A stretch of 64,000 bases of DNA from an uncultured bacterium (lineage in GTDB: Bacteria; Bacillota_I; Bacilli_A; RFN20; CAG-826): the NCBI GenBank assembly GCA_949285665.1, contig CASDYC010000001.1, forward strand, positions 456,107-520,106, in the 5' to 3' direction. The notes under the pieces were generated by a model, which saw only the letters and a program-made list of their open reading frames with translations, had not been told where the DNA came from and ran no database searches. Shown here in pieces: positions 29,868-57,878 of the stretch. Every line of letters begins with the position of its first letter. The stretch's first letter is position 1. Position numbers and translations under genes: made by a program.

Positions 29868-31274
29868 TTATTTATTTTTAGATTTAATATATTCGTCAAT
29901 TGCTTTAGCTGCTTTTTTACCAGCACCCATTGCAAGAATAACAGTTGCAGCACCAGTTACTGCATCACCACCAGCATAAACGCCGACTCTTGATGTTTCT
30001 CCAGTTTCTTCTTTTGCAATAATACAACCATGATCATTTGTTTCTAATCCTTTAGTTGTCTTTTTAATTAATGGATTTGGTGAGGTACCTAAAGCCATAA
30101 TTAAGCAATCAATTGGTAAAACGTATTCACTACCTTCAACTGGAACTGGTCTTCTTCTACCAGATGCATCTGGTTCTCCTAATTCCATTTTAATTACTTT
30201 AACACCACAAACATGTCCATTTTCATCACCTAATACTTCAACCGGATTATTTAAAGTATCAAAAATAATTCCTTCTTCTTGAGCGTGATGAATTTCTTCT
30301 TTTCTAGCAGGCATTTCTTCAATGTCTCTTCTATAAATAATATGGACTTCTGCTCCTAATCTTAATGCACATCTTGCAGCATCCATTGCAACGTTGCCAC
30401 CACCAACTACTGCAACAACTTTCGAGTGAGCAATTGGAGTTTCACTATCTTCTTTGTAAGCTTTCATTAAGTTAGTTCTTGTTAAAAATTCATTAGCACT
30501 ATAAACACCATTTAAATTTTCACCTTTAATTCCCATAAATTTTGGAAGTCCAGCACCTGAACCAACAAATACAGCCTCAAATCCTTGTTCAAACAATTCG
30601 TCAATTGTAATAGTTCTTCCAATAACGGTATCAGTGTAAACTTTAACACCTAAATCAATTAAGTTTTCAACTTCTTTTTGAACAATAACTTTTGGAAGTC
30701 TGAATTCTGGAATACCATAAACTAAGACACCACCTGCTTTATGTAAAGCTTCAAAGACTGAAACTTCATAACCTAATTTAGCTAAGTCACCAGCACAAGT
30801 TAATCCACTTGGGCCAGCACCAACAATTGCAACTTTATGACCATTTGATTGAGGTTTTACAGCTTTTTCAGTTGAATTATTCATATGCCAATCAGCAACG
30901 AATCTTTCAAGTCTTCCAATTCCAACTGGTTCTCTATTAGGGCCTTTTCCTCTTACACATCTTGATTCACATTGACTTTCTTGAGGACAGACTCTACCAC
31001 AAACAGCTGGAAGAGAGCTTGATTTATGAATTATTTTATAAGCACCTTCGTAATCTTTTTCTTTAATTTTTGCAATAAAGTTTGGAATGTCAATTGAAAC
31101 AGGACATCCTTCAACACAAAGTGGTTTTGGACAATGTAAACATCTATTAGCTTCATCTAAAGCTAATTCTTCTGTATAACCTAATGCAACTTCTTTAAAA
31201 TTTTTAGCTCTTTCTTTTGGATGTTGACTTGGCATTTTGTTTTTGTCAGGTCTCATGTTAAATTTTGCTGGCAT
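29868..31274 (-). CDS. nfnB: NADPH-dependent GltD-family oxidoreductase (NfnB/SudA-like large subunit)
   Basis: Two [4Fe-4S] motifs (CLHCPKPLCVEGCP and CGRVCPQESQCESRC). FAD and NAD(P) Rossmann folds (VAIVGAGPSGLTCA and VAVVGGGNVAMD). Confidence 0.7.
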   Translation of the reverse strand: MPAKFNMRPDKNKMPSQHPKERAKNFKEVALGYTEELALDEANRCLHCPKPLCVEGCPVSIDIPNFIAKIKEKDYEGAYKIIHKSSSLPAVCGRVCPQESQCESRCVRGKGPNREPVGIGRLERFVADWHMNNSTEKAVKPQSNGHKVAIVGAGPSGLTCAGDLAKLGYEVSVFEALHKAGGVLVYGIPEFRLPKVIVQKEVENLIDLGVKVYTDTVIGRTITIDELFEQGFEAVFVGSGAGLPKFMGIKGENLNGVYSANEFLTRTNLMKAYKEDSETPIAHSKVVAVVGGGNVAMDAARCALRLGAEVHIIYRRDIEEMPARKEEIHHAQEEGIIFDTLNNPVEVLGDENGHVCGVKVIKMELGEPDASGRRRPVPVEGSEYVLPIDCLIMALGTSPNPLIKKTTKGLETNDHGCIIAKEETGETSRVGVYAGGDAVTGAATVILAMGAGKKAAKAIDEYIKSKNK

Positions 31275-31276
31275 AA

Positions 31277-32119
31277 TTATTTGACCTCCTTTTTAAATAA
31301 ATTACAGGTCTCTTCGTATTTCTTTCTTTCAAAATCACGATACATTTTATTTCTATTGATGGCTTCATCAAAATCAACTTCATGGCCATCAAAATCTGGT
31401 CCATCAACACAAGCAAATTTGACTTTACCACCAACTGTTAATCTACAGCAACCACACATTCCAGTTCCATCAATCATAATTGGGTTTATGGAAACAACAG
31501 TTTTGACGTTGTATTTCTTTGTTAATAAACAAACAAATTTCATCATAATGAGTGGTCCAATACAGATAACTCTATCAAATTTTTCACCTTTTTTGAGTAA
31601 TTCTTCTAAAGCGTTAGTTACTAAACCTTTTGTTCCTACACTTCCATCATCAGACATCAAAATATATTCATCTGATACTTCTTTAAATTCATCTTCTAAA
31701 ATTACTAAATCTTTATTTCTAAAACCAACAATAGAAGTAACTTTTGCACCATTTTCATGTAAAGCTCTAGCAACTGGAAGAGCAATTGCACAACCAGCAC
31801 CGCCACCAATTACACAAACTTTATTAAATCCTTCTACTTCGCTTGGTTCACCTAATGGACCTACAAAATCTTGTAAATAATCTCCAACTTGTTTGTGTGC
31901 CAATAACAATGTTGAACCACCAACAACTTGGAAAATAATTTCAACAGTACCTTCTTTTTTATTTGTACCAGCTACTGTTAAAGGAATTCTTTCACCTTCT
32001 TCATTAACTCTTAAAATGATAAATTGTCCAGCTTTAGCTTTATTTGCAACTAAAGGAGCTTCAATATCCATCATTATAACAGTTGGATTTAAATCTCTAC
32101 GTCTTACAATTTTAAACAT
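31277..32119 (-). CDS. nfnA: PyrK/FNR-like electron-transfer subunit with a C-terminal [2Fe-2S] cluster (NfnA/SudB-like)
   Basis: FAD/NAD-binding barrel and Rossmann fold (VCVIGGGAGCAI). Cluster cysteines GMCGCCRLTVGGKVKFACVDGP. It lies 2 nt upstream of the GltD-like gene. Confidence 0.7.
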   Translation of the reverse strand: MFKIVRRRDLNPTVIMMDIEAPLVANKAKAGQFIILRVNEEGERIPLTVAGTNKKEGTVEIIFQVVGGSTLLLAHKQVGDYLQDFVGPLGEPSEVEGFNKVCVIGGGAGCAIALPVARALHENGAKVTSIVGFRNKDLVILEDEFKEVSDEYILMSDDGSVGTKGLVTNALEELLKKGEKFDRVICIGPLIMMKFVCLLTKKYNVKTVVSINPIMIDGTGMCGCCRLTVGGKVKFACVDGPDFDGHEVDFDEAINRNKMYRDFERKKYEETCNLFKKEVK

Positions 32120-32191
32120 AATAAAACCATCCTTTACAAATAATATTTTATAACTTATTGACTAATTTTAATATAAAAAATTTAATAAAAC

Positions 32192-32221
32192 TATATAAAA
32201 AGAGACAACTTTCGTCGCCCC
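32192..32221 (-). terminator. Terminator of the Fe-ADH gene with a GNRA tetraloop
   Basis: On the minus strand the RNA GGGGCGAC-GAAA-GUUGUCUC forms an 8-bp stem (three G-U pairs) with a GAAA loop, followed by UUUUUAU. Confidence 0.55.
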
Positions 32222-32275
32222 TTTTTTATGTATTCGTGTATTATTTAAAATTATATGTTTTTTGGAAAAAATTAA

Positions 32276-33460
32276 TTAGAAATCAACTTTTTGTCCGTAG
32301 TAACAATAAGTTAATAATTTTTCCATTTCTTCTTGGCTAGGTTGTCTTGGATTGCTACCTGTACATGCATCAGCAATTGCATTTTTAGCAATATCATGAA
32401 CTTTAGCTTTGAATTCATCTTCTGGAACCATTCCATTATTGAAATCTTTAATACAAGCTGGAATGTTTAAAATCTTATTGTAGTCTTCAATTTTCTTACA
32501 AAGTGCTTCAATTTTGTTTTCTGCACTACCAACGATACCACATGCTTCAGCAATTTCTACATATCTTGCAGCAGCAACTGGGTTTTTAGAATTGAATCTA
32601 ATAACGTTTGGTAAATACATAGCATTAGCACATCCATGTGGAATATGACCATTTTTAAATGCTGCACCAGTTTTGTGAGCCATTGAGTGGACAATACCAA
32701 GTAATGCATTAGAGAATGCCATACCTGCTAAACATTGAGCATTGTGCATTTGATCTCTTGCGACGTGGCATCCATTGTATGAATCTGGTAAATATTCAAA
32801 AACCATTTTAATAGCTTGCATTGCAAGTGGATCTGTATAAACACTGTGAACTGTTGAAACATAAGCTTCAATAGCATGTGTTAAAGCATCCATACCTGTA
32901 TAAGCTGTTAAGCTTTGTGGCATTGAATAAGCAATTTCTGGATCAACAATAGCGACATCTGGAGTAATATTGAAGTCTGCTAATGGATATTTAATACCTT
33001 TCTTATAATCTGTAATAACAGCAAATGCTGTAACTTCAGTAGCTGTACCGCTTGTAGAAGAAATAGCACAGAATTTTGCTTTAGTTCTTAATGTTGGGAA
33101 TGAGAATGGTGTAATTAAATCTTCAAATTTAACATTTGGATATTCATAGAATGCCCACATAGCTTTTGCAGCATCAATTGGGGATCCTCCACCAATAGAA
33201 ACAATCCAATCAGGATTGAATTTTCTCATTGCTTCAGCGCCTCTGTAGACAGTTTCAACACTTGGATCTGGTTCAACACCATCAAAAACTTCTACTTCCA
33301 TACCAGCTTCTTTAAGATAATTAACTGTTTTATCTAAGAAACCAGTTTTTTTCATTGAATGACCACCAGTTACAACAATAGCTCTGCTACCTTTTAAATT
33401 TTTAAGTTCAGCTAATGAACCAGCGCCATAATAAACATCTCTTGGTAATGTAAAACGCAT
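32276..33460 (-). CDS. Iron-containing (group III) alcohol dehydrogenase
   Basis: Fe-ADH signatures GGGSPIDAAKA and the His cluster HSMAHKTGAAF..HG. 394 aa. Confidence 0.8.
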   Translation of the reverse strand: MRFTLPRDVYYGAGSLAELKNLKGSRAIVVTGGHSMKKTGFLDKTVNYLKEAGMEVEVFDGVEPDPSVETVYRGAEAMRKFNPDWIVSIGGGSPIDAAKAMWAFYEYPNVKFEDLITPFSFPTLRTKAKFCAISSTSGTATEVTAFAVITDYKKGIKYPLADFNITPDVAIVDPEIAYSMPQSLTAYTGMDALTHAIEAYVSTVHSVYTDPLAMQAIKMVFEYLPDSYNGCHVARDQMHNAQCLAGMAFSNALLGIVHSMAHKTGAAFKNGHIPHGCANAMYLPNVIRFNSKNPVAAARYVEIAEACGIVGSAENKIEALCKKIEDYNKILNIPACIKDFNNGMVPEDEFKAKVHDIAKNAIADACTGSNPRQPSQEEMEKLLTYCYYGQKVDF

Positions 33461-33525: not shown

Positions 33526-33659
33526 CAGGATTTTCCTGCCTTAAATATTATATAAAAAAATTATAAATAAGTATAGAATTAAGTATTTTTTTACCGATTA
33601 ATTTTTGTCAAAAATTAACAATTATTACTATAAAATATAATATAGATTTATAGTATAAT

Positions 33660-40674: not shown

Positions 40675-43029
40675 ATGAAGAAAAATTTACTAACAATTGC
40701 AAGTGCATTGTTATTGTCAATTTCTTTAGCTTCCTGTGATGGTCGAACCGTTGATGGTTCATCAAGTACTGCTACGTCTGATACAGCTACTACTACAACC
40801 ACAGGTACAACAACTACTGGTACAACAACTACTGGTACAACCACAACTACTACAACTACTACTTCCGTCCATACAATGGATGAAGTATTAGCTCAACTTA
40901 AAGGCGTTTTAAGTTTAAAAGGCGATTTGTCAATGCTAGTTAAGGAAAATGGCATTGTCGTTTCTAGTCAAAAATCTGTTTTAGAAGTATTAGTTTCTCC
41001 ATCTCATTACTTTAATAGAGAAACAGGTGATTCTTTCTACATTACAGATATGTATTTAGCAGAAGATGGAACAACTGTTGAAAAATCAGTTGATCCTACA
41101 ACTGGAGAAGTAAGTGAATCTGCTTCTTATTATGATATTGCTGAGTATCAAAACCCATTTGCTGATTTAACAGTTGATGATTTAACACTTGGTGCAAATC
41201 ATCAAGTCGCAATAACATTAACTGAAGATGAATTTACAAAAGCTGGTGCTGTATTAACAATGTATGGCGAAGCTTCTGTTACTTTCCAAACAGCTGTATT
41301 AACAATTGATGATGATTACATGATTACAGAAATGACATTTACTGGAGTTAGCAGCGAAGGTGTCGAATCAAAGTTTGCTTGTTCTGTAATTGATGAAAGT
41401 GAATTAAGTATTCCAGTTTATGAAAGAACTGAAACACATGAAGAAATCGATTCATTATTTAGTGAACTTAAAAAAGGTAATTATACTTTTGCAGTTGAAG
41501 ATAGTGCTGGTGTAGCTTTTGAAACTAAAGTTACTTCTGAAGGTTTTATTATTGATGATCAACAAGGATATATTTTAACAGATGAAGGTTTAGCTGATTT
41601 TGAAGTCGTTGATGGAAAATTAGTTGGTTCATCCCCAGCAACAAGCTTAACAATGGCTGATGTTGTTCCTCCATTTGATTATTTATCTTCAATGTTTGAT
41701 AAAGATGGAGATGTTTATACACTTCCAGCTGGTCTTGGATTAGATTTTGCAATTGAAAATATTTTACCAGAAGCTGCAATATATGATCCTCTTGGCTATG
41801 GTATTGTTTTAGTAGATGATGGTTCATATACATTAACAAATAATCAAGATGGAACTTGGGCTGCTTCATATACTTCTTCTGATCCATTATTTGGATCACA
41901 AGTAACAGTTGAAGTTACAATTTCGGAAATTGGTACAACATTATTTGGTTACACTTTAGAAGATTATGTTGAACCAGCACCACAAACTTCATGGGCAGAT
42001 GTTGATTATGCTCTTGAATTATTAGAACTAGCTGGTATTGCAGAAGAAGATTTACCATTCTATTTACCAGAAGGTGGTTTCTGGCAACTTGATACAGAAA
42101 ATCTTTCTGACTTAATTTTACTCTTACCAAGTGATGTAACTGCTACTCAAGCTCTTACTACTTATACAAGTATGTTAGTTAATGCTGGTTGGGAGCAAAC
42201 ATCTACTAGTGATTATGGAACAAGTTTCTCATTAGATACTGGTGAGCCAGGAAAACTTATTGGTAATATTACATTAGAAGCATATGATGAAGATGGTTTA
42301 TTTGTAATTTGGTTTGAAGATCCAACTCTTCCAGAAACAGAAAATAAAGTAGGACCTTGGATTGATGAACACTTTGCAGATTCAGCAACAATTAACTATA
42401 CAATGGAATTTGATTCTACTTTATATTATTATGAAGTTGATCAAGAAACTCAAATTAAATTAGATGATGTTGCAGATGGAAGTCAAGAATTTGGAACTTC
42501 AAGATTTATGTATACAAAAGATGCAATGCTTACTGGTAAAGTAAGTGAAACTAATGCATTTACACCAAGTGTATTATACTTAAATACTACTAGCGGATTA
42601 TCAATTTATACATATTCAACCGGAGAACCAACACTTGCTCAATCATATCCAGATTATACTTATCAAGCTAATGCTGTTTATACAATGGCTGATTTAGTTG
42701 GTATGGAATCATTATTAGCACTTAATGAAGATGGAACACAAGTTGAGGTTATGGATGAATATGATCTATATTACATTCTTGAAATGACTCAATTTGCTTT
42801 GACCTCTGGTGGAGAAGAAGTTGAATTAACACCTGTTAAATGCGTTATGACACTAGATGAAACTGCAAATGAACTTCAATTCACATTAACATTAGAAGAT
42901 CAAAATTATCTATGGTGGTTAGATCAAGCTCAAACTAAACTTGCATGTATGGAAGTTGAAATTGTAGGTACAATTAAAGCAATTGGAACTACTACAATTG
43001 ATGAAACATACTTACCAAGTAGTCTATAA
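40675..43029 (+). CDS. Large surface lipoprotein with a Thr-rich low-complexity linker (paralog 1)
   Basis: Lipoprotein signal MKKNLLTIASALLLSISLASC. It is followed by DTATTTTTGTTTTGTTTTGTTTTTTTT and then a ~700-aa acidic D/E/T-rich domain. RBS GGAGGTG. Confidence 0.7.
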   Translation: MKKNLLTIASALLLSISLASCDGRTVDGSSSTATSDTATTTTTGTTTTGTTTTGTTTTTTTTTSVHTMDEVLAQLKGVLSLKGDLSMLVKENGIVVSSQKSVLEVLVSPSHYFNRETGDSFYITDMYLAEDGTTVEKSVDPTTGEVSESASYYDIAEYQNPFADLTVDDLTLGANHQVAITLTEDEFTKAGAVLTMYGEASVTFQTAVLTIDDDYMITEMTFTGVSSEGVESKFACSVIDESELSIPVYERTETHEEIDSLFSELKKGNYTFAVEDSAGVAFETKVTSEGFIIDDQQGYILTDEGLADFEVVDGKLVGSSPATSLTMADVVPPFDYLSSMFDKDGDVYTLPAGLGLDFAIENILPEAAIYDPLGYGIVLVDDGSYTLTNNQDGTWAASYTSSDPLFGSQVTVEVTISEIGTTLFGYTLEDYVEPAPQTSWADVDYALELLELAGIAEEDLPFYLPEGGFWQLDTENLSDLILLLPSDVTATQALTTYTSMLVNAGWEQTSTSDYGTSFSLDTGEPGKLIGNITLEAYDEDGLFVIWFEDPTLPETENKVGPWIDEHFADSATINYTMEFDSTLYYYEVDQETQIKLDDVADGSQEFGTSRFMYTKDAMLTGKVSETNAFTPSVLYLNTTSGLSIYTYSTGEPTLAQSYPDYTYQANAVYTMADLVGMESLLALNEDGTQVEVMDEYDLYYILEMTQFALTSGGEEVELTPVKCVMTLDETANELQFTLTLEDQNYLWWLDQAQTKLACMEVEIVGTIKAIGTTTIDETYLPSSL
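40789..40863 (+). repeat. Tandem 15-nt repeat (ggtacaacaactact) encoding GTTTT units within a Thr-rich linker
   Basis: Two perfect 15-nt copies at 40804-40833. Degenerate copies extend through 40863. Confidence 0.6.
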
Positions 43030-43066: not shown

Positions 43067-43187
43067 CACTTATTAAAAAAATGTTTAAAGGCCTTAAATA
43101 GGTCTTTAAACATGATTAGGGTTTTAATATTTTTAACTAAATATTTCTATATATTTAAAAAAAATTATGTAATTGAAAGGAGATTTT

Positions 43188-45635
43188 ATGAAAAATAAAT
43201 TACTAATTTTTGCAACAGCTATCTTATTTAGTATTACATTAGCATCTTGTGATAATAACACAACTTCTTTAAGTAATACTACAACTAGCACTCAAACAAC
43301 AACTCAAACGACAACTACTACAACTACAACTACTACTACAACAACAACTAGTATTGATCCCGCAACAGTTTTAAGTAATGTTTTAAATCAATTAAAGTCA
43401 CCAATTTCATACGATGGAAAAATTGTTTTAAAACAAAATGGTATTGTTTTATCTCAAATGCATATTTATGGCTATCAAGGTGTTGGTGAAGTTTATATTA
43501 ATAGAGATGGCACAGCAATTCACTTATTTAAAGATGAAACTGGTTATGCAGTTCAAAAAATGATTAATCCTTTAAAAAATGAAGTTGTTAGTGTGCCACT
43601 TACATCTTCTTCGCAATATGTTTTATATGATGAATATGTATTTAATCCATTCCTTAGCTTAACTGCCGATGACTTAGTTTTAAGTGGTAATGAAATTACA
43701 ATTACTGCAACTCAAGAAAATGGTCTTGCTCAATCTTTAAGATATTTTGCTTTTTATACTGATGAGATGAAAGAAGTAAAATTAACTATTGATGATGTTG
43801 GGACAATTTTAAAAGTTGAATTATCAAGTGATAATATTACTTATACAGCAGATATTGTTGATAAAGAAACAATTAATGTTCCAGTAATTGAAGCAAAACA
43901 AGCAACTTCTGATCATCAAAAATTAACAGATTTATTTACTGAATTAGAAAAAGGTAATTATACGGTATCTTATAAATCTGTTTATGAAGATGGTACAGAA
44001 AGCATTGAATTAACATCATTTGATTTTAAATTAACTCCTGATGGTTTATTAACTTCTACTGGTCAAGGGTTCTTAGAAACTGATGATGGATTAGTTCAAG
44101 TTGAAGTAACAGATGATAATAAACTTCAAGGTGTTAGTTTACCAGATGATAGTGTTTCAATTCTTGATGATTTTGTAAATCCATTTTCTCAATTTAAAGC
44201 AGAGACTTTTGATTATGAAAATAACATATTTACTTTACCAGAATATATTGATTATGATTATTTAACATATATTCTTCCAGAAATACAATTTGTTTATAGT
44301 AGTACTTTTGGTTATGAAGTAACTCCAGGTAGTTTATCAATTACATTTAATGAAGATAATACTTATACAATTAATTATGAATATATTTATTATACATATA
44401 ATGATGATTATGAACTTGTATATGTTCCATTAAATGTTACAACAGTAATCTCTAATGTTGGAACTACTTCTTTAGGTTATACATTAGATGATTATATTCC
44501 AAAACCAAGACAAAATTCTTGGAGTGATGTTGAAGGAGCTTCTGATCTATTAGAAACTTATTCGATTCCAAGTGATTTACTTCCATTTTATTTACCAGAT
44601 GAAGCAGATGAATGGTACATTTATAGTGACATTTATTCTGGTGATAGTTTATGTTTATCATTCCCAACCGGTGATAATTTAGCAGCTCATTATGCTGAAT
44701 ATAAAAAATTATTAGAAGCAAAGGGTTGGCAATCTCAAGGTGTTGATGATTATGATGAAGAAAAATTTACATATACAACATCTGAAGGTACAATTTTAAA
44801 AATTGGTCTTGTGCAAGTAGAACAAACTGGTCAATATGAATATTACGAAATTGATATTTATTTATATGCTCCAGAAATTGCATCAGAGATCTCAAATTAT
44901 GTAAATGAAAATATTGTTAATAAACATAACTACACACTTACTGGTACATTAGTTGAAACTTATACTGAAGTTGATGCTGATGGAAATACTGTCGAAAATG
45001 GAATAGTCATCGAAAATACTTTAGTTGATGGTTTGACAACTTATGTAACTGAAGATGCTTATTATCAATATATAGAAACTGAAAAAGGAAAAGCAGGCGT
45101 TCTTTATAAAGAAACTCAAAGTAATGGCACCATAAATACTGAAGGATATATTGCAATGACAGATGATCCAAATGGAGAATTAACTTTCCAATATTCCGAA
45201 GATTTATCAATTGACGATTGGGAATTATATTTATGGGTTTATACATTAGATGATGTATTTAATGGATATACTCCACTAGTTGTTGAAGATGACTACACAC
45301 TTGTTGGAAATGAAGGTCAAGGATATTATGGATTTAACGTTTTTTCAGAAGTATTATCTCTTATAATGTTCCCAGAAGATGCTGGATTTGAATTGGATTC
45401 ACTTTTATCTGAAGAAACTTTATTAAAAATTGATGAAATAGATCCAGATTCAATTATTGTAACAATGGATCCAGAAACAAAAGCCATTCAATTAGTTATT
45501 TCTTGTTTTAGTGAATCTGGTGTTACTATTGACGAACAAGAAGGAAAAACATTTAATCATACTATTGAATTAATCGTTGATGTCTCTGATATTGGTACAA
45601 CAACAATCGATCTTGATTCATTTAATATTCAATAA
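43188..45635 (+). CDS. Large surface lipoprotein with a Thr-rich low-complexity linker (paralog 2)
   Basis: Signal MKNKLLIFATAILFSITLASC. Linker TSTQTTTQTTTTTTTTTTTTTT. It shares conserved blocks with paralog 1 (ELEKGNYT..., SW.DV.....LLE......LPFYLP...). Start at ATG 43188, preceded by AAAGGAG. The ORF-track TTG start at 43173 is rejected. Confidence 0.7.
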   Translation: MKNKLLIFATAILFSITLASCDNNTTSLSNTTTSTQTTTQTTTTTTTTTTTTTTSIDPATVLSNVLNQLKSPISYDGKIVLKQNGIVLSQMHIYGYQGVGEVYINRDGTAIHLFKDETGYAVQKMINPLKNEVVSVPLTSSSQYVLYDEYVFNPFLSLTADDLVLSGNEITITATQENGLAQSLRYFAFYTDEMKEVKLTIDDVGTILKVELSSDNITYTADIVDKETINVPVIEAKQATSDHQKLTDLFTELEKGNYTVSYKSVYEDGTESIELTSFDFKLTPDGLLTSTGQGFLETDDGLVQVEVTDDNKLQGVSLPDDSVSILDDFVNPFSQFKAETFDYENNIFTLPEYIDYDYLTYILPEIQFVYSSTFGYEVTPGSLSITFNEDNTYTINYEYIYYTYNDDYELVYVPLNVTTVISNVGTTSLGYTLDDYIPKPRQNSWSDVEGASDLLETYSIPSDLLPFYLPDEADEWYIYSDIYSGDSLCLSFPTGDNLAAHYAEYKKLLEAKGWQSQGVDDYDEEKFTYTTSEGTILKIGLVQVEQTGQYEYYEIDIYLYAPEIASEISNYVNENIVNKHNYTLTGTLVETYTEVDADGNTVENGIVIENTLVDGLTTYVTEDAYYQYIETEKGKAGVLYKETQSNGTINTEGYIAMTDDPNGELTFQYSEDLSIDDWELYLWVYTLDDVFNGYTPLVVEDDYTLVGNEGQGYYGFNVFSEVLSLIMFPEDAGFELDSLLSEETLLKIDEIDPDSIIVTMDPETKAIQLVISCFSESGVTIDEQEGKTFNHTIELIVDVSDIGTTTIDLDSFNIQ

Positions 45636-45654
45636 AATTAACTAAAAACTTATA

Positions 45655-45690
45655 AAAAAGAATTCTTAGCAATTTCTAAGAATTCTTTTT
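45655..45690. terminator. Bidirectional terminator between the convergent lipoprotein 2 and hydrogenase genes
   Basis: aagaattcttag-caattt-ctaagaattctt is a perfect 12-bp stem with a flanking A-run and T-run. Confidence 0.65.
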
Positions 45691-45738
45691 AATTTTTGGA
45701 AAATAATGAATTTTTATTACGACTTATTTAGTAGAAGA

Positions 45739-47151
45739 TTATTTAATATCTTCTACTGCTTGTTTAATAGATTCTTTTTGTGAAGTTTTTCCATATCTTT
45801 CAACAGACATTTTATCTTTTAATTCATGAGTTAAATTACATGGCCCTCCAACACAGCCTCCAACACAAGCCATACCTTCAATAAAGTTTCCGTCTAAGGT
45901 TCCATTTTTCATCTTGTTTAAAGCATCTCTACAAGCAGGAATTCCATCACATGGTACAGATTTTGCAATAAAATCAATATTTTGTTCTTTTAATGATTCA
46001 TTAATTGCATCTGTTAATCCACCACATCTTGCAAATATTCTTCCAAAATATGATGCATCATTTAATTGATCTTCTTTTAAGAGTTTCATATCAATTTCAT
46101 AAGCATCAATTAATGCTTGCAATTCTTCAAAAGTCATTGCAGAATCAATATATTTTTTAACTTTTTCATCTTTTATTTCTTGTTTTTTAGCAGTACATGG
46201 ACCAATAAAAACAATATAAGAATCAGGATATTTTTGCTTCATAACTTCTCCAATACATGCCATTGGAGATAAACTTGAAGAAATATTTTCAACTAAACTT
46301 GGAAAGTTCTTTTTAATATAAGAAACAAATGCTGGACAACATGAAGAAGTTAATTTTCCTTTTTCAGTTAATTCTTTTCCTTCATGAAGAGCAACAATAT
46401 CAGCACCTAGTGCAGCTTCAACAACTAAATCAAATCCTAGTTCTTTAATGGCAGATACGACTTGTCCAGTTTTAACTTCATAAAAGTTTGAACTAATTGA
46501 TGGAGCAATTACAGCAATCTTTTTGATATTTTCATCATTTAAATGATCAATTATATCTAAAATATATGAATCATCTACAACAGCTCCAAATGGACACATG
46601 TATACACAGTTTCCACATTGTATGCATTTATTGTCATCAATAATTGCATGTCCATCTTCACTTGAGTGAATTGCGTGAGTTTTGCAGGATTTTTCACAAG
46701 GTCTTATTCTATTTTCAATTGCATTATAAGGACAATTTTTAGCACATAATCCACAATTTATACACATCTCTTTATTAATATGTGCTCGTTGATTTTCATC
46801 AAAATAAATTGCTTTTTTAGGACATGATTGTTCGCATCGATGAGCAATACAACCTCTACAAGCATCGCCAATAAAATATCCACCAAGAGGACATTCATCA
46901 CACGCAATTGGAATAACTTTAATTACATTAGAATCATTTTTTTCTTTAGCTTTTAAAATTAAAGACATTCTTTCTTCAACTATTGCTCTTTCTTTATAAA
47001 TACAACATCTCATGGATGGTTTTGGACCTGGAACAATAATCTTAGGAATTTCTAATAATTTTTCTTTTAATTGATTATTTTTATAAGCAATAGCAACTTC
47101 TTTTAAAATTCTATATCTTAATTCTTGGACTCTTGTGTCAAATTTTGGCAT
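45739..47151 (-). CDS. [FeFe]-hydrogenase-family protein (N-terminal multi-[4Fe-4S] domain plus a compact H-cluster domain with non-canonical motifs)
   Basis: Ferredoxin-like motifs CINCGLCAKNCP and CIQCGNCVYMCP plus additional Cys clusters. H-cluster motifs TSSCCPAFVSYI (P1-like), IGPCTAKKQEI (P2-like) and EGMACVGGCVGGPCN (P3-like). RBS AAAGGAG. Confidence 0.7.
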   Translation of the reverse strand: MPKFDTRVQELRYRILKEVAIAYKNNQLKEKLLEIPKIIVPGPKPSMRCCIYKERAIVEERMSLILKAKEKNDSNVIKVIPIACDECPLGGYFIGDACRGCIAHRCEQSCPKKAIYFDENQRAHINKEMCINCGLCAKNCPYNAIENRIRPCEKSCKTHAIHSSEDGHAIIDDNKCIQCGNCVYMCPFGAVVDDSYILDIIDHLNDENIKKIAVIAPSISSNFYEVKTGQVVSAIKELGFDLVVEAALGADIVALHEGKELTEKGKLTSSCCPAFVSYIKKNFPSLVENISSSLSPMACIGEVMKQKYPDSYIVFIGPCTAKKQEIKDEKVKKYIDSAMTFEELQALIDAYEIDMKLLKEDQLNDASYFGRIFARCGGLTDAINESLKEQNIDFIAKSVPCDGIPACRDALNKMKNGTLDGNFIEGMACVGGCVGGPCNLTHELKDKMSVERYGKTSQKESIKQAVEDIK

Positions 47152-47175
47152 ATCAAACTCCTTTAAAAATATATA

Positions 47176-47199
47176 GGCATAAGATAATTCTTATGCCTA
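47176..47199 (-). terminator. Terminator downstream of adhE, also the 5' leader of the hydrogenase gene
   Basis: aggcataaga-taat-tcttatgcct is a perfect 10-bp stem. On the minus strand it is followed by AUAUAUUUUU. Confidence 0.55.
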
Positions 47200-47241
47200 C
47201 AAATTATTATACTATAAATTTCAAGTTAACTTAAATTACAA

Positions 47242-49869
47242 TTAGTTGCCTTTATATGCTTTACGCATAATTTCTTTCATATCTTCAACCATTGGAATTC
47301 TTGGATTTGCGGTTGTACATTGATCTTCAAATGCAAGATAAGCTAAATCATCTAATGATTCATCCCAAGCTTTTTCATCTTTTACCCAACATGAGAAGTT
47401 TGGATCAACACCACATTCTTTAATTAATGTAGCAACAGCATCTGCAAGTTTATCAACAGCATCATGTAAATCTTTATATTTAATGCCAATTACATCACAT
47501 ATTTCAGCATATTTTTCTGGAGCACAATAATAATTATATTTTGGCCAAGTAGTTAATTTTTGAGGTAAGATTTTACCATTATATCTAATAACATGTGGTA
47601 ATAAAATTGCGTTTGCAAGACCATGTGGAACATGCCATTCACCACCAATTTTATGAGCCATTGAGTGACACATACCTAAGAAAGCATTTGCAAATGCCAT
47701 ACCAGCAATTGTACTAGCATTATGCATTTTTTCTCTTGCTTCTAAATCATGCTTCCCATCTTTTACACATCTTACTAAATATTTAAATACAATTTTAATT
47801 GCTTGTAATGCAAGACCATCCGTATAATCACTTGCTAAAACACTTGTATATGCTTCAATTGCATGAGTTAAAACATCAAGACCAGTCCAAGCTGTTGTTG
47901 CTGGAGGTAAATTTGTTGTAAATTCTGAATCAACAATAGCGATTGTTGGAGTTAAAGAATAATCAGCTAATGGATATTTCTTCATATTAGCTTTATCAGA
48001 AATAACTGCAAATGGAGTTACTTCACTACCAGTGCCAGATGTTGTTGGAATACAAATAAGTTTAGATTTTTTACCTAATTCAGGATATTTAATAGCTCTT
48101 TTTCTAATGTCCATGAATTTTTGTTTTAAATCATCAAAATTAACTTCTGGATGTTCATAGAATAACCACATACCTTTTGCAGCATCCATACAGCTACCAC
48201 CACCTAAAGCAATAATTGTATCTGGTTGGAAGGATTGCATTAAAGCTACACCTCTTTTAACTGTTGAAATATCTGGATCTGGTTCGACATCACAGAATAA
48301 AGCTGTTGTGACTTTATTTCTTCTTAAATTTAATTGTTCAGTAATTTTATTTAAGAAACCAAGTTCAACCATTGAACCATCTGTTACGATACAAACTCTA
48401 TTTACATTTCTACAAGTTCTTAAATATTCAATTGAGTTTCTTTCAAAATAAATTTTTGAAGGAACTTTAAACCATTGCATTGTATTTCTCCTTTTTCCGA
48501 TTTTTTTGATATTGATTAAATTGATACAACTAATATTTCCTGCAACCGAGTTATGACCATAACTTCCACAACCAAGTGTCATTGAAGGAATAAATGAGTT
48601 GTAGATATTACCAATTCCACCAAATGATGTTGGAGAATTCCAAATGATTCTACAAGCTTCACATCTTTTACCAAATTCATCAGCTAATTCTTGAGATTTT
48701 GTATGAATACATGCACTATGGCCTAAACCATTAAGTTCAACCATTTGTTCACTTAATTTTAAACCTTCTTCATTATCTTTTGCTTTTAAGATAGCTAAAA
48801 CTGGTGATAATTTTTCTCTTGATAATGGTTCTTCATAACCAACCTTTTTAATCTTAACAGCTAAGATAACTGTTTCTTTTGGAACGCTAAATCCGGCTTG
48901 TTCAGCAATCCAAACTGCTGATTTTCCAGCAACTTTAGAATTAAGACTTAATAATTGGCAATCTTTGCTATATGCTTTATTGCCAAACATAAACATTTCT
49001 AATTTTTCTTTTTCTTCTTCGTTTACAAAATAAACGTTATATTTTTTAAATAAATCAACTGCTTCATCGTATACATCTTTATGAATAATTGCAGCTTGTT
49101 CACTTGCACAAACCATACCATTATCAAATGATTTGGACATAACAATGTCATTTACTGCTTGTTTTACGTCTGCGTCTGAAGCAATAAATGCAGGAACGTT
49201 ACCAGCACCAACGCCTAAAGCAGGTTTTCCACAGCTATAAGCTGATTTAACCATTGAGTTTCCACCAGTTGCAAGAATTGTAGCGACACCAGGATGTTTC
49301 ATTAATGCACTTGTTGCAGCCATTGATGGTTTATCAATCCATTGAATACAATTTTTTGGAGCACCATTTGCAACCGCTGCTTCTAAAATAACTTGAGCAG
49401 CCATTTTAGAACATTGTTGTGCATTTGGATGGAAAGAAAAAATAATAGGATTACGTGTTTTTAAAGAAATTAAACACTTAAAAATTACAGTTGAAGTTGG
49501 ATTGGTTACTGGTGTAATACCACAAATAACACCAACTGGATCAGCAATTTCAGTAATTCCAGTAACAGGATTTTCTGAAATTATACCAACTGTTTTCATA
49601 TGTCTCATATGATTAACAACGTATTCACATGCGAATAAATTTTTTGTTGCTTTATCTTCAAAAACTCCTCTTTTTGTTTCTTCAATTGCTGCTCTTGCAA
49701 GTATTCCATGTTTATCAAGTGCAGCACATGAACATTTTGCAACAATCAAATCAACTTGTTCTTGATCTAATTTTAAAAATTCTTCTAATGCTTTTTGTCC
49801 TTTTACAACTAAGTCATTAACCATTGTATCGACTTCAAGTTGTTTTTCATCTTTTTTAATTTCTTCCAT
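47242..49869 (-). CDS. adhE: Bifunctional acetaldehyde-CoA/alcohol dehydrogenase AdhE
   Basis: 875 aa. N-terminal ALDH domain and C-terminal Fe-ADH domain (GGGSCMDAAKGMW and the HSMAHKIGGEWHVPHG His cluster). It starts 4 nt downstream of rex. Confidence 0.85.
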   Translation of the reverse strand: MEEIKKDEKQLEVDTMVNDLVVKGQKALEEFLKLDQEQVDLIVAKCSCAALDKHGILARAAIEETKRGVFEDKATKNLFACEYVVNHMRHMKTVGIISENPVTGITEIADPVGVICGITPVTNPTSTVIFKCLISLKTRNPIIFSFHPNAQQCSKMAAQVILEAAVANGAPKNCIQWIDKPSMAATSALMKHPGVATILATGGNSMVKSAYSCGKPALGVGAGNVPAFIASDADVKQAVNDIVMSKSFDNGMVCASEQAAIIHKDVYDEAVDLFKKYNVYFVNEEEKEKLEMFMFGNKAYSKDCQLLSLNSKVAGKSAVWIAEQAGFSVPKETVILAVKIKKVGYEEPLSREKLSPVLAILKAKDNEEGLKLSEQMVELNGLGHSACIHTKSQELADEFGKRCEACRIIWNSPTSFGGIGNIYNSFIPSMTLGCGSYGHNSVAGNISCINLINIKKIGKRRNTMQWFKVPSKIYFERNSIEYLRTCRNVNRVCIVTDGSMVELGFLNKITEQLNLRRNKVTTALFCDVEPDPDISTVKRGVALMQSFQPDTIIALGGGSCMDAAKGMWLFYEHPEVNFDDLKQKFMDIRKRAIKYPELGKKSKLICIPTTSGTGSEVTPFAVISDKANMKKYPLADYSLTPTIAIVDSEFTTNLPPATTAWTGLDVLTHAIEAYTSVLASDYTDGLALQAIKIVFKYLVRCVKDGKHDLEAREKMHNASTIAGMAFANAFLGMCHSMAHKIGGEWHVPHGLANAILLPHVIRYNGKILPQKLTTWPKYNYYCAPEKYAEICDVIGIKYKDLHDAVDKLADAVATLIKECGVDPNFSCWVKDEKAWDESLDDLAYLAFEDQCTTANPRIPMVEDMKEIMRKAYKGN

Positions 49870-49873
49870 TTTT

Positions 49874-50515
49874 TTACCTCTCTTTTCTTTTTAAAATTAA
49901 TTGATGATATAAATTAGCATAGCTAGATGCCATAGACATGTTTGAAACAACAATATTTGGATTTACATTAATTGCAATTGTCGCAAAATTCCATATCGCT
50001 TCAATTTTTGTTTGATTTAAGATATCAACTACTTCTTGAGCATGATTATTTGGAACTGTTAAAATTGCAACTGAAATGTTATTTTTATCTACATAATCTT
50101 TAAGTTCTTTTAGTGGATAGACATTAATACCATTAATATCTACTTCGTATAATAATGGATTAATATCAAATGCTGCAATAATATTTAAACCATTCTTTTT
50201 AAAGTCATCAAAATTTAACAAAGCTTTTCCAAGATGACCGGCACCAATTAAAACAGCATTTAATTCTTCTTTCACACCAACAATTTTCATTAAGTCATTA
50301 ATTAAAACCGATACTTTTCTTCCAATTCTTGGTAAGCCTTTTTCACTTGAAATAGCCGCTAAATCTTTTTTAACTACTTCAATGTTTAATTTAAGAACAT
50401 TTGCAAACTCACGATTGGAAATATAAGTATTATCATCAAAATTAATGGACCTTAAGTAATCCAAATAAAGCGGGTATCTTTGAACTTGATTCTGAGATAA
50501 TTTGTTCCTTTTCAT
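49874..50515 (-). CDS. rex: Redox-sensing transcriptional repressor Rex
   Basis: N-terminal winged helix (RYPLYLDYL). Rossmann NADH-binding motif IGAGHLGKALL. 213 aa. Confidence 0.8.
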   Translation of the reverse strand: MKRNKLSQNQVQRYPLYLDYLRSINFDDNTYISNREFANVLKLNIEVVKKDLAAISSEKGLPRIGRKVSVLINDLMKIVGVKEELNAVLIGAGHLGKALLNFDDFKKNGLNIIAAFDINPLLYEVDINGINVYPLKELKDYVDKNNISVAILTVPNNHAQEVVDILNQTKIEAIWNFATIAINVNPNIVVSNMSMASSYANLYHQLILKRKER

Positions 50516-50573
50516 AAACTCGGTATTTTTTTACCGATATAATGATACTAAATAATTTCTTATTACTCAATAA

Positions 50574-51467
50574 TTATTTTTTATATATTTTATTATATAT
50601 AAAATCACAATAAATTTTGGCTATATTAACCTTACTAATTTTTTCAATTTCCGTAAAAAAGGCATTAGAATTAACTTCTATCAAAATATATTTTCCGCTT
50701 TTATCCAATACAAAATCAACAGCACAATAATCAAGTTTTAATAATTTACTTGCCTTTGTTGCATCTTTAATAATTTGTTTATTTGGTGTGAAAGTATAAC
50801 CAACACCACCTGCTGCTACATTAGAAACATATGAATTGTTGTTAACCCTTTTCATATAAGCTACAGGTTTTTTATTAATTAAGAAAACTCGATAATCAGT
50901 ACCTTTTGATTCTTGTATAAATTCTTGAAAAATATGAGGAGTATATTTTAATTTTTCTTCGATTAAATTAAAATCATCTAAATTATTAATTAAATAGACT
51001 TGTTTTCCAAGAGAACCAAAGTTTTCCTTAATTAAAAATGGAAAAGTGAATTCTTTTAATATCTTATTTTTAAATTCAATAAATTTACTTTCATTATTAA
51101 AATAATTCAATGGATAAGATATTGTTTTAGGCATCATTATATTATTATTTGACAATTTAATATGCGTTAACATTTTATCATCGCAATCAATTATTGATTT
51201 TGAATTATTAAATAAAATGTATCGTTCTTTTTCTAATAATTCACTAATATATTTATCTTTATCTAAATAAATAATAAAATCATATTTTTTTAATTTATTG
51301 GTAATTTTTCCTTCATTATCTATGTAAATAAAAATATCGATGTTAGAAATAACATCAATTGAAACGTTTACCTCTTTAAATTCTTCAATTAATCGATTAA
51401 TTTGATATATAGTTGAATCTCTTAATATAAAAGCATTTACAATAATTGCACCTAACTTATTTTCCAT
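50574..51467 (-). CDS. ATP-grasp ligase of the RimK-like family (alpha-L-glutamate ligase-like)
   Basis: The C-terminal half (DYRVFLINKKPVAYMKRV..SNVAAGG..KLLKLDYCAVDFVLDKSGKYILIEVNSNA) parallels the RimK ATP-grasp core. Its start overlaps the glf stop by 11 nt. Confidence 0.6.
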   Translation of the reverse strand: MENKLGAIIVNAFILRDSTIYQINRLIEEFKEVNVSIDVISNIDIFIYIDNEGKITNKLKKYDFIIYLDKDKYISELLEKERYILFNNSKSIIDCDDKMLTHIKLSNNNIMMPKTISYPLNYFNNESKFIEFKNKILKEFTFPFLIKENFGSLGKQVYLINNLDDFNLIEEKLKYTPHIFQEFIQESKGTDYRVFLINKKPVAYMKRVNNNSYVSNVAAGGVGYTFTPNKQIIKDATKASKLLKLDYCAVDFVLDKSGKYILIEVNSNAFFTEIEKISKVNIAKIYCDFIYNKIYKK

Positions 51468-54311: not shown

Positions 54312-57300
54312 TTATAAACCGAATTTTTTAATTCTTTCGTATCTTTCTTTTGCAGTTCTTTCACATTTTTCGAGTAATTCTTCTGCGTGTTCAGGATTAA
54401 CTTTTGGAAGTTGTGAGAATCTTGATTCTTTCATAACGAATTCTCTAATCTTTGTGAAGTCAGGTTCCTTACTATCTAATGTTAAGCAAGGTTTTCCTAA
54501 TTCTGCATTTCTTGGATCAAATCTAAAGATTGGGAAATATCCAGATTCAACTGCTTCTCTTTCAACTTGCATTGAATTAGATAAACCACCTTTAATACCA
54601 TGGTTAGCACATGGTGAATAACAAATAATTAAACTTGGTCCATCATAACTTTCAGCTTCTTTCATAGCTTTAATAGCTGCCATTGGATTTGCTCCAAGTG
54701 CAATTTGAGCAACATAGACATTTCCATATGCCATTGCCATTAATGCTAGATTTTTCTTACTTGTTGTTTTACCACTTGCAGTAAATTTAGCAATTGAACC
54801 AGTTTGACTTGATTTAGAAGATTGACCGCCAGTATTAGAATAAACTTCTGTATCTAATACTAAGACATTAATATCATCTTCACTTGCAAGAACATGATCA
54901 AGACCGCCGTAGCCAATATCATAAGCCCAGCCATCTCCACCAATAACCCAGACTGACTTGTCAATTAAATCTTTTTCAAATTTTAAGACTTCTTTAACTT
55001 CTTGATCTTTTGAAGCTTTAACTAATGAAACTAAATTACTAACAAGTCCTCTAACTACATCTTTATTTTTAATATTTTCAAGATATTTATTAATAACTTG
55101 TTTTAATTCATCTTCAACATCATCTTTATTTAAAGCTGCAGATAAAATTTTAACAATTTGAGATAATTTATAATTTGTTGCAACTCTCATACCATAGCCG
55201 AATTCTGCATTATCTTCAAATAATGAGTTAGACCATGCAATACCATTTTTATCTTTATCATTTACAAATGGAGTAAGTGGAGTTGAACCACTATAAATTG
55301 AGGAACAACCAGTTGCATTTGCAACCATCATATCTTTACCAAATAATTGTGACAATAATCTATAATAAGGAGTTTCACCACAGCCAGCACATGCACCAGA
55401 AACTTCCATATATGGCATTAAGAATCCAACACCTTTGACCATTGTAAGTGGGAATTTATCACTCTTATAAGATACATGTTTATATAAGTAATCTGCACCT
55501 TCTTCTTGATCAAATTGTGATTTAGCTTCTTCCATTGTAAGAGCCATTTTACCATTTCCAGATTTTAATGCAGCTTTATTAGCCATACATTCATTTACAC
55601 ATAAACCACAGCCAACACAGTTTCTAGCAGAAACTTGAATTCTGAATTTTAATCCAGCAACATTTGGTCCACCTTTTGCATCGACTACATCATTTTTGAC
55701 AACGTCAGGAGCCTTTGCCAATTCTTTTTCATCAATTAAGAATGGTCTAATTGTTGCATGTGGACAAACAAATGCACATTGGTTACATTGAATACAGTTT
55801 TCTTTATGCCACATTGGAACTCTATCAGCGATACTACGTTTTTCTTTAAATGTAATATCTTCTTCCATTGTGCCATCTAATAATTCAAATTCTCTAAATT
55901 TAGAAACAGGTAAATTATCTCCATCAAGAGAGCCAATTGGAGTAACATATGAATCAAAATAATCATCACCAATTAAATGTACTTCTCTAAGTGGTGGAAG
56001 TTTTGCCCATTCTGGATCGACTTTAACTTCTCTTAAACCTTCGGTACCTCTATCGATTGCTTTAAAGTTACTAGCAACGACTTCTGGTCCTTTTTTAGCA
56101 TATGTTTTTTCAGCAAATTTTTTCATCCATTTATTTGCTTCTTCATATGGCATAATATTTTGATTTAAGTAGAAGAAACTAGATTGAAGAATTGTATTTG
56201 TATGTCTTCCCATACCAGTTTCTTGAGCGATTTTATTAGCATCAATTACAAAGAATTTAGCATGTTTTGTAGCTAATTGATATTTAACTCTATTTGGAAG
56301 AGTTTCAATAAGTGTCTTATCATCCATATCTGTATTTAATAAGAATGTTCCACCATCTTCCAAATTCTTTAACATATCAAATTTAAATAAATAAGTATCT
56401 AAACTACAAGAAATAAAGCTTGCATGTTCAACATAATATGTTGATCTAATCGGAGTTTTACCAAATCTTAAGTGAGATCTTGTAACACCACCAGCTTTTC
56501 TTGAGTCATATGCAAAATATGCTTGAGCATATTGTCCAGTTTCATCACCAATAATTTTAATACTTGATTTATTAGCACTAACTGTACCATCACTACCTAA
56601 ACCATAGAATAAGCATGATGTATAATCACCTTTAACATGATAATTTTCATCAACTGGAATTGATAAATGAGTTACATCATCATTAATACCAACTGTGAAA
56701 TTATGATGTGGATTGTGATCTAAGAAATCAAATACACTCTTAATATGTTTTGGTTGAGTATCTTTACTTGAAAGACCATATCTTCCACCAAATACTTCAA
56801 TATCTTTTAAGCCTTCTTTATTTAATGCAGCAACTACATCTAAATATAAAGGTTCTCCAAGAGCACCAGATTCTTTTGTTCTATCTAAAACAGCAATTTT
56901 CTTAACTGTTTTTGGTAATTTCATTACTAAATGTTTACTTGAAAATGGTCTAAATAAGTGAACTTTAATTAAACCAACTTTTTCACCTTTAGCAAGTAAA
57001 TCATCGATTACTTCTTTTGTAGTTTCAGTAACACTACCCATTGCAACGATAACTTTTTCAGCATCTTTTGCACCATAATATGTAAATGGAGCATATTCTC
57101 TCCCGGTTAATTCGCTTGCTTTTTTAAAGTAGTAATCAGCAATATCAACTACTTTATCAAATTCTTTATTTTGAGCTTCTCTTGCTTGGAAATAAATATC
57201 ATCATTTTCAGCACCACCTCTTGTGACTGCATGTCCATGAGGATTTAAAGCTCTTGCTCTAAATTCATCTAATTTTTCTTGATTGATTAATTTTTTCCAT

Positions 57301-57878
57301 TCTTCTGGATCAACAAATTCAACATTTTGAATTTCATGAGATGTTCTAAATCCATCAAAGAAATGGCAAACTGGAATTGAAGAATCAATTGCAAGTAAAT
57401 GAGCAACACTTGCTAAATCAGCAACTTCTTGAACACTATGTGAACAAATCATTGTTACACCAGTTTGTCTAATTGCATAAACATCTTGATGATCTCCAAA
57501 AATTGAAAGTGCACGTGTTGCTAAACTTCTAGCAGAAACGTGTAAAACAGCTGGTAATAATTCACCAACCCATTTATAAATATTAGGAATCATCAATAAT
57601 AAGCCTTGAGAGGCTGTGTAAGTAGTTGCTAAAGCACCAGCTTGAAGAGCACCGTGAACTGTACCACTTGCGCCACCTTCTGATTGCATTTCGACAACTT
57701 TAACAGTATTTCCAAAAAAATTTAATTTACCTTGGCTTGCATAAACATCAACTAATTCAGCCATTGGTGATGATGGAGTAATAGGAAAGATTCCAGCTAC
57801 TTCAGTAAACATATAAGATGTTAAAGCTGCAGCAGTATTTCCATCACAAGATAATTTTGTCTTTTTAACTTCTGACAT
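54312..57878 (-). CDS. nifJ: Pyruvate:ferredoxin (flavodoxin) oxidoreductase, single-chain
   Basis: 1188 aa. Two ferredoxin motifs (CIQCNQCAFVCP and CVGCGLCVNEC) and the TPP-binding region GGDGWAYDIGYGGLDHV. RBS AAGGAG. Confidence 0.9.
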   Translation of the reverse strand: MSEVKKTKLSCDGNTAAALTSYMFTEVAGIFPITPSSPMAELVDVYASQGKLNFFGNTVKVVEMQSEGGASGTVHGALQAGALATTYTASQGLLLMIPNIYKWVGELLPAVLHVSARSLATRALSIFGDHQDVYAIRQTGVTMICSHSVQEVADLASVAHLLAIDSSIPVCHFFDGFRTSHEIQNVEFVDPEEWKKLINQEKLDEFRARALNPHGHAVTRGGAENDDIYFQAREAQNKEFDKVVDIADYYFKKASELTGREYAPFTYYGAKDAEKVIVAMGSVTETTKEVIDDLLAKGEKVGLIKVHLFRPFSSKHLVMKLPKTVKKIAVLDRTKESGALGEPLYLDVVAALNKEGLKDIEVFGGRYGLSSKDTQPKHIKSVFDFLDHNPHHNFTVGINDDVTHLSIPVDENYHVKGDYTSCLFYGLGSDGTVSANKSSIKIIGDETGQYAQAYFAYDSRKAGGVTRSHLRFGKTPIRSTYYVEHASFISCSLDTYLFKFDMLKNLEDGGTFLLNTDMDDKTLIETLPNRVKYQLATKHAKFFVIDANKIAQETGMGRHTNTILQSSFFYLNQNIMPYEEANKWMKKFAEKTYAKKGPEVVASNFKAIDRGTEGLREVKVDPEWAKLPPLREVHLIGDDYFDSYVTPIGSLDGDNLPVSKFREFELLDGTMEEDITFKEKRSIADRVPMWHKENCIQCNQCAFVCPHATIRPFLIDEKELAKAPDVVKNDVVDAKGGPNVAGLKFRIQVSARNCVGCGLCVNECMANKAALKSGNGKMALTMEEAKSQFDQEEGADYLYKHVSYKSDKFPLTMVKGVGFLMPYMEVSGACAGCGETPYYRLLSQLFGKDMMVANATGCSSIYSGSTPLTPFVNDKDKNGIAWSNSLFEDNAEFGYGMRVATNYKLSQIVKILSAALNKDDVEDELKQVINKYLENIKNKDVVRGLVSNLVSLVKASKDQEVKEVLKFEKDLIDKSVWVIGGDGWAYDIGYGGLDHVLASEDDINVLVLDTEVYSNTGGQSSKSSQTGSIAKFTASGKTTSKKNLALMAMAYGNVYVAQIALGANPMAAIKAMKEAESYDGPSLIICYSPCANHGIKGGLSNSMQVEREAVESGYFPIFRFDPRNAELGKPCLTLDSKEPDFTKIREFVMKESRFSQLPKVNPEHAEELLEKCERTAKERYERIKKFGL

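Follow-up and report, generated by a model that had tools for sequence, protein, structure and literature searches.

The stretch of DNA considered here, 64,000 nucleotides of contig CASDYC010000001.1 (assembly GCA_949285665.1) from an uncultured bacterium, with a GC content of ~26%, will be called the window. Directly behind rex and adhE it carries a gene, hyd, for a protein of the [FeFe] hydrogenase family, and we hold it to be quite probable that the product is a catalytically competent, monomeric and ferredoxin-dependent hydrogenase of group B. As far as its sequence tells, this is an ordinary member of that group, one more sequence of a known family, in an uncultured lineage of low-GC gut Bacilli. 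By analogy, its most likely role would be that of a ferredoxin-dependent H2 producer co-expressed with the dehydrogenase AdhE. The features of the gene and its product that matter here are the following:

45739..47151, minus strand: gene of the group B (B1-type) monomeric [FeFe] hydrogenase, 470 aa (TIGR04105, Pfam Fe_hyd_lg_C and AlphaFold2 model)
46594..47007, minus strand: accessory Fe-S region, aa 49-186, 18 Cys (Cys conservation; Pfam matches Fer4_7 and LdpA_Fe-S-bd)
45841..46521, minus strand: core of the H-cluster domain, aa 211-437 (Pfam Fe_hyd_lg_C; aligns to CpI and to HydA1 of HydABC)
46327..46350, minus strand: motif P1, TSSCCPAF, aa 268-275; C271 corresponds to CpI C299, the proton-relay Cys, and C272 to CpI C300, a ligand of [4Fe-4S]H
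46177..46203, minus strand: motif P2, GPCTAKKQE, aa 317-325; C319 is an H-cluster ligand, K322 the conserved Lys, and Gly stands for the Met of group A
45841..45879, minus strand: motif P3, EGMACVGGCVGGP, aa 425-437; C429 and C433 are H-cluster ligands, M427 is conserved

The rest of the span to which a first-pass annotation had drawn attention, 47152..47241, is the 90-nt intergenic region between adhE and hyd. That annotation had placed the protein in the [FeFe] hydrogenase family, and the placement holds over the full length: TIGR04105 (FeFe_hydrog_B1, 'monomeric [FeFe] hydrogenase'), the curated NCBIfam model for group B1, with 462 positions, gives 537.5 bits against a cutoff of 450 (E = 2.5e-161), residues 4-442 of the protein matching model positions 1-461. 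Models of group A stay below their curated cutoffs (TIGR02512, 177.5 vs 405.95 bits; NF040763, 166.8 vs 765; NF040762, 135.8 vs 900). The Pfam family Fe_hyd_lg_C matches aa 211-437 with E = 4.6e-63, and the same Pfam scan found no PAS, FeS (PF04060) or small-subunit domain in the protein, the lack of PAS having been remarked upon before. The alignment-based AlphaFold2 (AF2) model reaches a pLDDT of 88.4 and a pTM of 0.85. Its best matches in the PDB are the [FeFe] hydrogenases CbA5H and CpI, with probability 1.00, and all the PDB matches listed are enzymes of group A type (CbA5H, CpI, HydABC, Desulfovibrio).

The family is a large one. At least 8000 homologues were scored in a collection of 5.8 billion proteins, the best 120 of them being 58-99% identical to the query and 469-495 aa long; several are labelled 'monomeric [FeFe] hydrogenase' or '[FeFe] hydrogenase (group B1/B3)' by their source databases. 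Searched without a filter, a set of 1.84 billion cluster representatives gave 442 clusters (50% identity) at E <= 1e-30. The identical protein is also encoded on scaffold_123 (118 kb) of ENA ERZ16268045 and on one Logan contig, and between strains the hydrogenase is 98-100% identical. The closest species representative is the uncultured Bacilli bacterium BRZ_FB__bin55 (98% identity for this protein), followed by Candidatus Alectryobacillus merdavium (70%), then by uncultured 'Mollicutes' UMGS metagenome-assembled genomes and Candidatus Onthovivens (57-65%). We take the names of these genomes to be those of RF39-type, small-genome gut Bacilli. Three sets served for comparison: 121 aligned close homologues, 82 related loci, and 106 divergent representatives of the family.

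The N-terminal region is rich in cysteines, as had been noticed. Its 18 Cys are arranged as two CxxCxxCxxxCP, one CxxCxxxxCxxxCP, one CxxxC and one CC...CxxC group, and each is kept in 120-121 of the 121 close homologues. This would be enough for four predicted [4Fe-4S] clusters, the number modelled for the homologue of Bacteroides fragilis (PMC12578642). Behind it, the H-domain had been described as short, 265 residues against 350 in CpI-type enzymes. This is nearly exact: in a HMMER alignment residues 211-470 of the query (260 aa) face residues about 226-574 of CpI (about 349 aa). Compactness is a trait of the family as its curated model depicts it, since the query covers all but the last of the 462 positions of TIGR04105.

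The three motifs read exactly as first quoted, at aa 268-275, 317-325 and 425-437. They had been presented as non-canonical, and they do differ from the consensus of group A; they are not anomalous for all that, being the consensus of their own family. The P1 signature TSSCCP is found in 114 of the 121 close homologues, in 73 of the 82 loci and in 19 of the 106 broad representatives, where it stands between TTSCCP (33) and TSCCCP (12). The GPC of P2 is universal among the close homologues (121/121) and nearly so in the loci (81/82) and among the representatives (91/106, P2 being recognizable in 98). In the 121 close homologues P3 ends with GGP or GGA, not with GGGQP. An extended P1 (xT/S-S/C-CCP), a P2 built on Gly-Pro-Cys and a P3 ending in G-G-P/A are thus all present, and because they make the consensus of the TIGR04105 family in sets of 121, 82 and 106 sequences, these variants must be regarded as ordinary. 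A published survey of 274 group B sequences likewise gives xTSCCPxx and TSCCCP as the commonest forms of P1, the latter defining subgroup B2 (Fasano et al., bioRxiv 10.1101/2023.06.23.541094).

Do these motifs cast doubt on catalysis, as had been implied? The evidence does not support this: the ligands and the proton path are intact, and the group B precedent makes H2. Residues C271, C272, C319, C429 and C433, which align to C299, C300, C355, C499 and C503 of CpI, are kept in all 121 homologues, while the full complement of 23 functional Cys is kept in 120-121 of them. Residues E257, E260, S295, K322 and M427, counterparts of E279, E282, S319, K358 and M497 of CpI, are invariant in an alignment of 35 sequences. 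The sole active-site difference from CpI is Gly317 in place of Met353, and this replacement is a hallmark of group B. Intact ligands and proton path, together with 98-100% identity between strains, point to purifying selection on catalysis. As for the precedent, Bacteroides has group B enzymes that were shown to bind the di-iron site and to produce H2 while reoxidising ferredoxin that had been reduced by pyruvate:ferredoxin oxidoreductase (PFOR) (Welsh et al., Nat Microbiol 2025, PMC12578642). The literature settles the H2-producing function for the group B family; for the window protein itself, sequence and analogy suggest the same function.

The genetic setting of hyd comprises the following features:

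47242..49869, minus strand: adhE, bifunctional acetaldehyde-CoA/alcohol dehydrogenase (NF010378, 1374.5 bits, cutoff 951)
49874..50515, minus strand: rex, redox-sensing repressor (NF003994, 191.8 bits, cutoff 130)
47172..47201, minus strand: terminator-like hairpin (stem 13 bp, loop 4 nt) that precedes TATTTTTAAA; it lies past the adhE stop and ahead of the ribosome-binding site of hyd
47158..47164, minus strand: ribosome-binding site AAAGGAG, 6 nt ahead of the ATG at 47151 (read from the sequence)
45655..45690, no strand assigned: bidirectional terminator-like hairpin with a 15-bp stem, after the hyd stop and common to the convergent lipoprotein gene
50570..50542, minus strand: promoter-like site TTGAGT-17-TATCAT (promoter scan)
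50520..50538, minus strand: palindrome ATCGGTAAAAAAATACCGA, candidate operator of the rex-adhE(-hyd) unit, between the promoter-like site and the rex ATG
54312..57878, minus strand: PFOR (TIGR02176, 1599 bits, cutoff 911)

That hyd lies downstream of rex and adhE, behind a leader hairpin, was part of the first reading and is borne out, with both neighbours scoring above their cutoffs and the 13-bp stem present. Only 4 nt separate the rex stop from the adhE start. The arrangement is widespread: at least 41 of the 82 related loci, in Bacilli and in Clostridia, have adhE ahead of hyd on one strand, mostly with rex. The 90-nt adhE-hyd leader folds with -21.8 kcal/mol (z = -3.76), and a GC-containing hairpin followed by a T-run occupies the equivalent site in 12 relatives, with unrelated stem sequences; every relative in which adhE directly adjoins hyd has a strong hairpin and T-run there. 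The hairpin was considered as a conserved regulatory RNA and rejected as such, its position being kept but not its stem sequence, and belonging to no Rfam family: an Rfam scan of 45500..51000 (E <= 1) returned no known riboswitch or leader RNA, just one chance match to a small nucleolar RNA. Most simply, it would be the intrinsic terminator of adhE. Its T-run continues directly into the ribosome-binding site of hyd, leaving no room for a promoter between the two, and the promoter scan lists no sigma-70-like site in the adhE-hyd interval; hence hyd would probably be expressed by read-through of the adhE terminator from the rex-adhE transcript. A parallel exists in Ruminococcus albus: there a cluster that unites a ferredoxin-only hydrogenase with AdhE and with a sensory hydrogenase was lower by a factor of 111 when an H2 consumer was grown alongside, a response that the authors ascribe to low H2 (PMC6776011).

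What would control this transcript? The palindrome ahead of rex matches a Rex box in its geometry (half-site and spacer) and differs from it in half-site sequence. The core CGGTA-N6-TACCG recurs at the matching position in 13 related loci (L001, L003, L004, L006, L010, L011, L021, L022, L029, L040, L053, L073 and L080), and degenerate forms (TCAGTAAAAAAATATTGA) lie upstream of rex in about 10 further loci of Bacilli. In Clostridial relatives near-canonical Rex boxes stand upstream of rex in its place. The window holds a second copy with two mismatches (33580..33598, minus strand; 0.05 expected by chance), ~120 nt upstream of genes for an iron alcohol dehydrogenase (Fe-ADH) and an NfnAB-like pair. 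The palindrome may be a lineage-specific Rex operator, a lead rather than a result, and Rex would then control the rex-adhE-hyd unit. As a separate observation, a near-perfect Rex-like inverted repeat, TTGTTAA-TTT-TTGACAA, can be read by eye in 33600..33640 (minus strand), with a spacer of 3 nt, not 4 nt; it closely precedes the second copy of the palindrome, within the promoter region of the adh gene.

Put together, these elements suggest the following scheme, in which both the direction of catalysis and the ferredoxin partner are what we infer. PFOR, encoded 7 kb upstream, would reduce ferredoxin; it is likely to be the source of reduced ferredoxin for the hydrogenase, by virtue of the Bacteroides precedent (PMC12578642). 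Electrons would pass first into the accessory [4Fe-4S] clusters carried by the N-terminal 200 aa and then reach the H-cluster bound by C272, C319, C429 and C433, where protons would arrive by the conserved relay E260, S295, E257 and C271, and H2 would be released. When NADH builds up, Rex would let go of the rex-adhE-hyd unit, so that AdhE could remove NADH as ethanol and the hydrogenase could remove reduced ferredoxin as H2.

Several observations weigh against this picture. No separate ferredoxin gene (CxxCxxCxxxC motif) was found in the window. No canonical Rex box (TTGTKAA-N4-TTMACAA, with at most 2 mismatches) was found near rex, adhE or hyd, the search returning 6 matches in total against 8.8 expected by chance. 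An efficient terminator after adhE would require a separate promoter for hyd, and a candidate read by eye upstream of the hairpin (TTAAGT-17-TATAAT) is too weak to be claimed. The hydrogenase of the analogous R. albus cluster is labelled group A1 (PMC6776011), so that the parallel with it is one of gene order and not of proven orthology. Finally, the maturase genes hydE, hydF and hydG were found neither in the 64-kb window nor in the ~3.7 kb of a sister-strain scaffold that extend past its right end.

The alternative that survives best, though we think it unlikely, is that the enzyme mainly takes up H2 or supplies the catalytic subunit to a multimeric complex, NAD(P)H-linked or bifurcating, with the NfnAB-like pair (29868..32119) as one conceivable partner. 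This pair, together with a second Fe-ADH, lies 14 kb away behind its copy of the palindrome found upstream of rex. Yet no NuoE/NuoF-like genes for HydB or HydC flank the hydrogenase, the curated family bears the name 'monomeric', the Bacteroides enzymes serve to reoxidise ferredoxin, and NfnAB-like genes adjoin the hydrogenase in only two of the 82 loci (L050 and L077).

The missing maturases invite another thought, namely that in a reduced genome devoid of HydEFG the protein would remain unmatured, or would be no hydrogenase at all, but an apo electron carrier or a relic. The first-pass annotation had already pointed out that the window lacks hydE, hydF and hydG, and so it is: the only radical-SAM open reading frame (ORF) there (9444..10808) is RimO, and among ORFs of ~400 aa none shows the N-terminal P-loop expected of HydF. 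Further to the right come a peptidase U32 gene, on the sister-strain scaffold, and genes for TetR and an NMN transporter, on the contig of a second sample (L084). On the left side, no recorded protein is identical to the outermost one of the window. The lineage, judged from the names of its relatives, is moreover one of Mollicutes-like gut bacteria with small genomes. However, when the 82 loci were scanned for CxxxCxxC ORFs of 300-520 aa, none showed a radical-SAM gene of the HydE or HydG kind at 10 kb or less from the hydrogenase (HydF-like GTPases were not scanned for there); the single CxxxCxxC ORF returned, in L070, resembles neither HydE nor HydG. Absence of such genes nearby is therefore the norm of the family and uninformative as to function. 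With every H-cluster ligand and proton-path residue intact, and 98-100% identity between strains, we regard an unmatured protein or a relic as very unlikely, and return to a working group B hydrogenase.

Relatives of the locus tell more about regulation. In 53 of the 82 loci a three-gene module stands directly ahead of the hydrogenase gene (L023, 6867..9975; L041, 6797..9971; and 51 others). It is of the hfsABC type and codes for a [2Fe-2S] protein resembling thioredoxin, for HydS, a hydrogenase of group C, and for a SpoIIE/PP2C phosphatase; HydS joins an H-domain to an FeS domain and has a PAS match too weak to reach the Pfam cutoff. None of the three genes, those for HydS and the PP2C phosphatase included, is in the window, and the module is likewise not present in the nearest relatives (L001-L004, L009-L011, L021, L022, L038 and L059). 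The distinction matters for the typing of the window protein, first given as group B/C-like: the group B half stands, on TIGR04105 and the motifs, and the group C half falls, given the relay Cys, the missing PAS domain and the 29% identity to the HydS of L023. That the protein could be a sensory or regulatory hydrogenase, whose task is to report H2 or the redox state and not to turn H2 over, is barely credible, for although its P1 and P2 depart from the group A consensus and its gene adjoins a redox regulator, it has no PAS or other output domain, its proton-relay Cys C271 is present and invariant, its best curated model is the catalytic group B1, its Bacteroides homologues already evolve H2, and the true group C HydS is a separate neighbouring gene in those 53 loci.

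The window thus holds a reduced form of the cluster, with rex as sole remaining linked regulator; its lineage and the closest relatives either lost the sensor module or never had it. One may go further and propose that the lineage keeps an intact, strongly conserved group B hydrogenase although the H2-sensor module and the HydEFG maturases are both lost. This is highly improbable; were it true, the enzyme would need another route of maturation or would have a redox role other than that of a hydrogenase. In a milder reading, the hydrogenase-adhE unit may be under the control of Rex alone, with a re-specified operator, TCGGTA-N6-TACCGA.

The finding carries little enzymological weight, since the family already has its curated model, its thousands of members and its recent biochemistry. 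Its interest is rather in the organisms: Mollicutes-like gut Bacilli with small genomes carry the set of PFOR, group B hydrogenase and AdhE now thought dominant in gut H2 production, and this lineage would have shed, if it ever possessed it, the HydS/PP2C module for H2 sensing that most relatives retain beside the gene.

Other genes of the window deserve mention. At 29868..33460 (minus strand), the NfnAB-like pair (a GltD-type protein of 468 aa and a FAD/NAD-binding protein of 280 aa) lies downstream of the stand-alone Fe-ADH, of 394 aa. With PFOR, AdhE and the hydrogenase, these make up much of a set for balancing ferredoxin and NAD(P)H. A flavodiiron-type protein of 617 aa, encoded at 10995..12848 (plus strand), has a flavorubredoxin-like N-terminal part of 375 aa (below cutoff) and an extra C-terminal region, with 12 Cys; it is probably an enzyme that detoxifies O2 or NO. 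Convergent with hyd are two tandem paralogous lipoprotein genes (40675..43029 and 43173..45635, both plus strand), whose products of ~800 aa share 30% identity (E = 1e-51). Each carries a signal peptide and a lipobox Cys as well as a long poly-Thr linker; no NCBIfam model matches either one. In L001, where the hydrogenase is 100% identical, the hyd-proximal member is called as 622 + 148 aa, not as 820 aa. They look like strain-variable surface proteins.

How does the window protein compare with known systems? With CpI it shares the H-cluster ligands, the proton-relay residues, the motifs of the two proximal [4Fe-4S] clusters and the overall fold, for an identity of ~24%. It differs by an H-domain that is ~90 aa shorter, with trimmed loops and a C-terminal, small-subunit-like tail reduced from ~66 to 32 aa, by Gly at the place of M353, and by a different Cys-rich N-terminus instead of the [2Fe-2S] and His-ligated N-terminal domains of CpI. 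At the level of gene clusters, hfsABCD of Thermoanaerobacterium and hydS/hydA2/adhE of R. albus have, as in the window, the hydrogenase last in a unit with adhE (PMC11837493, PMC6776011), and gene order by itself suggests orthology to HfsD and to R. albus HydA2; these clusters carry the sensor and phosphatase module, in contrast to the window. BfHydM of B. fragilis is a close counterpart as a protein. It belongs to group B, with a (predicted) four-cluster accessory region and a compact H-domain, and like the window protein it is predicted to be a monomer that depends on ferredoxin, supplied in reduced form by PFOR, to produce H2. Compared by motifs rather than by full alignment, the two have the same types of P2 (GPC..K..E) and P3 (E.M.C..GC..GP), BfHydM reading GPCVAKRKE in L2 and EVMACEGGCISGP in L3 (PMC12578642), and they differ in P1, TSCCPSY in BfHydM against TSSCCPAF here. 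BfHydM comes from Bacteroidota, the window protein from Bacilli, where its gene is tied to rex-adhE.

There remain the group B2 (M2a) enzymes CpIII, MeII and ToHydA, which belong to the same group, have a P1 (TSCCCP) one residue longer than that of group A at the same place and, like the window protein, show variable N-terminal cluster motifs. The third Cys of TSCCCP is Ser in the window protein, and the Cys-dependent Hinact chemistry proposed for B2 should therefore not apply to it. Engineering has made the same change: ToHydA converted from TSCCCP to TSSCCP gave more H2 than the wild type (bioRxiv 10.64898/2025.12.18.695218). The window protein is the natural form of this engineered variant, and the natural TSSCCP clade to which it belongs may serve for comparison with the TSCCCP enzymes of B2.

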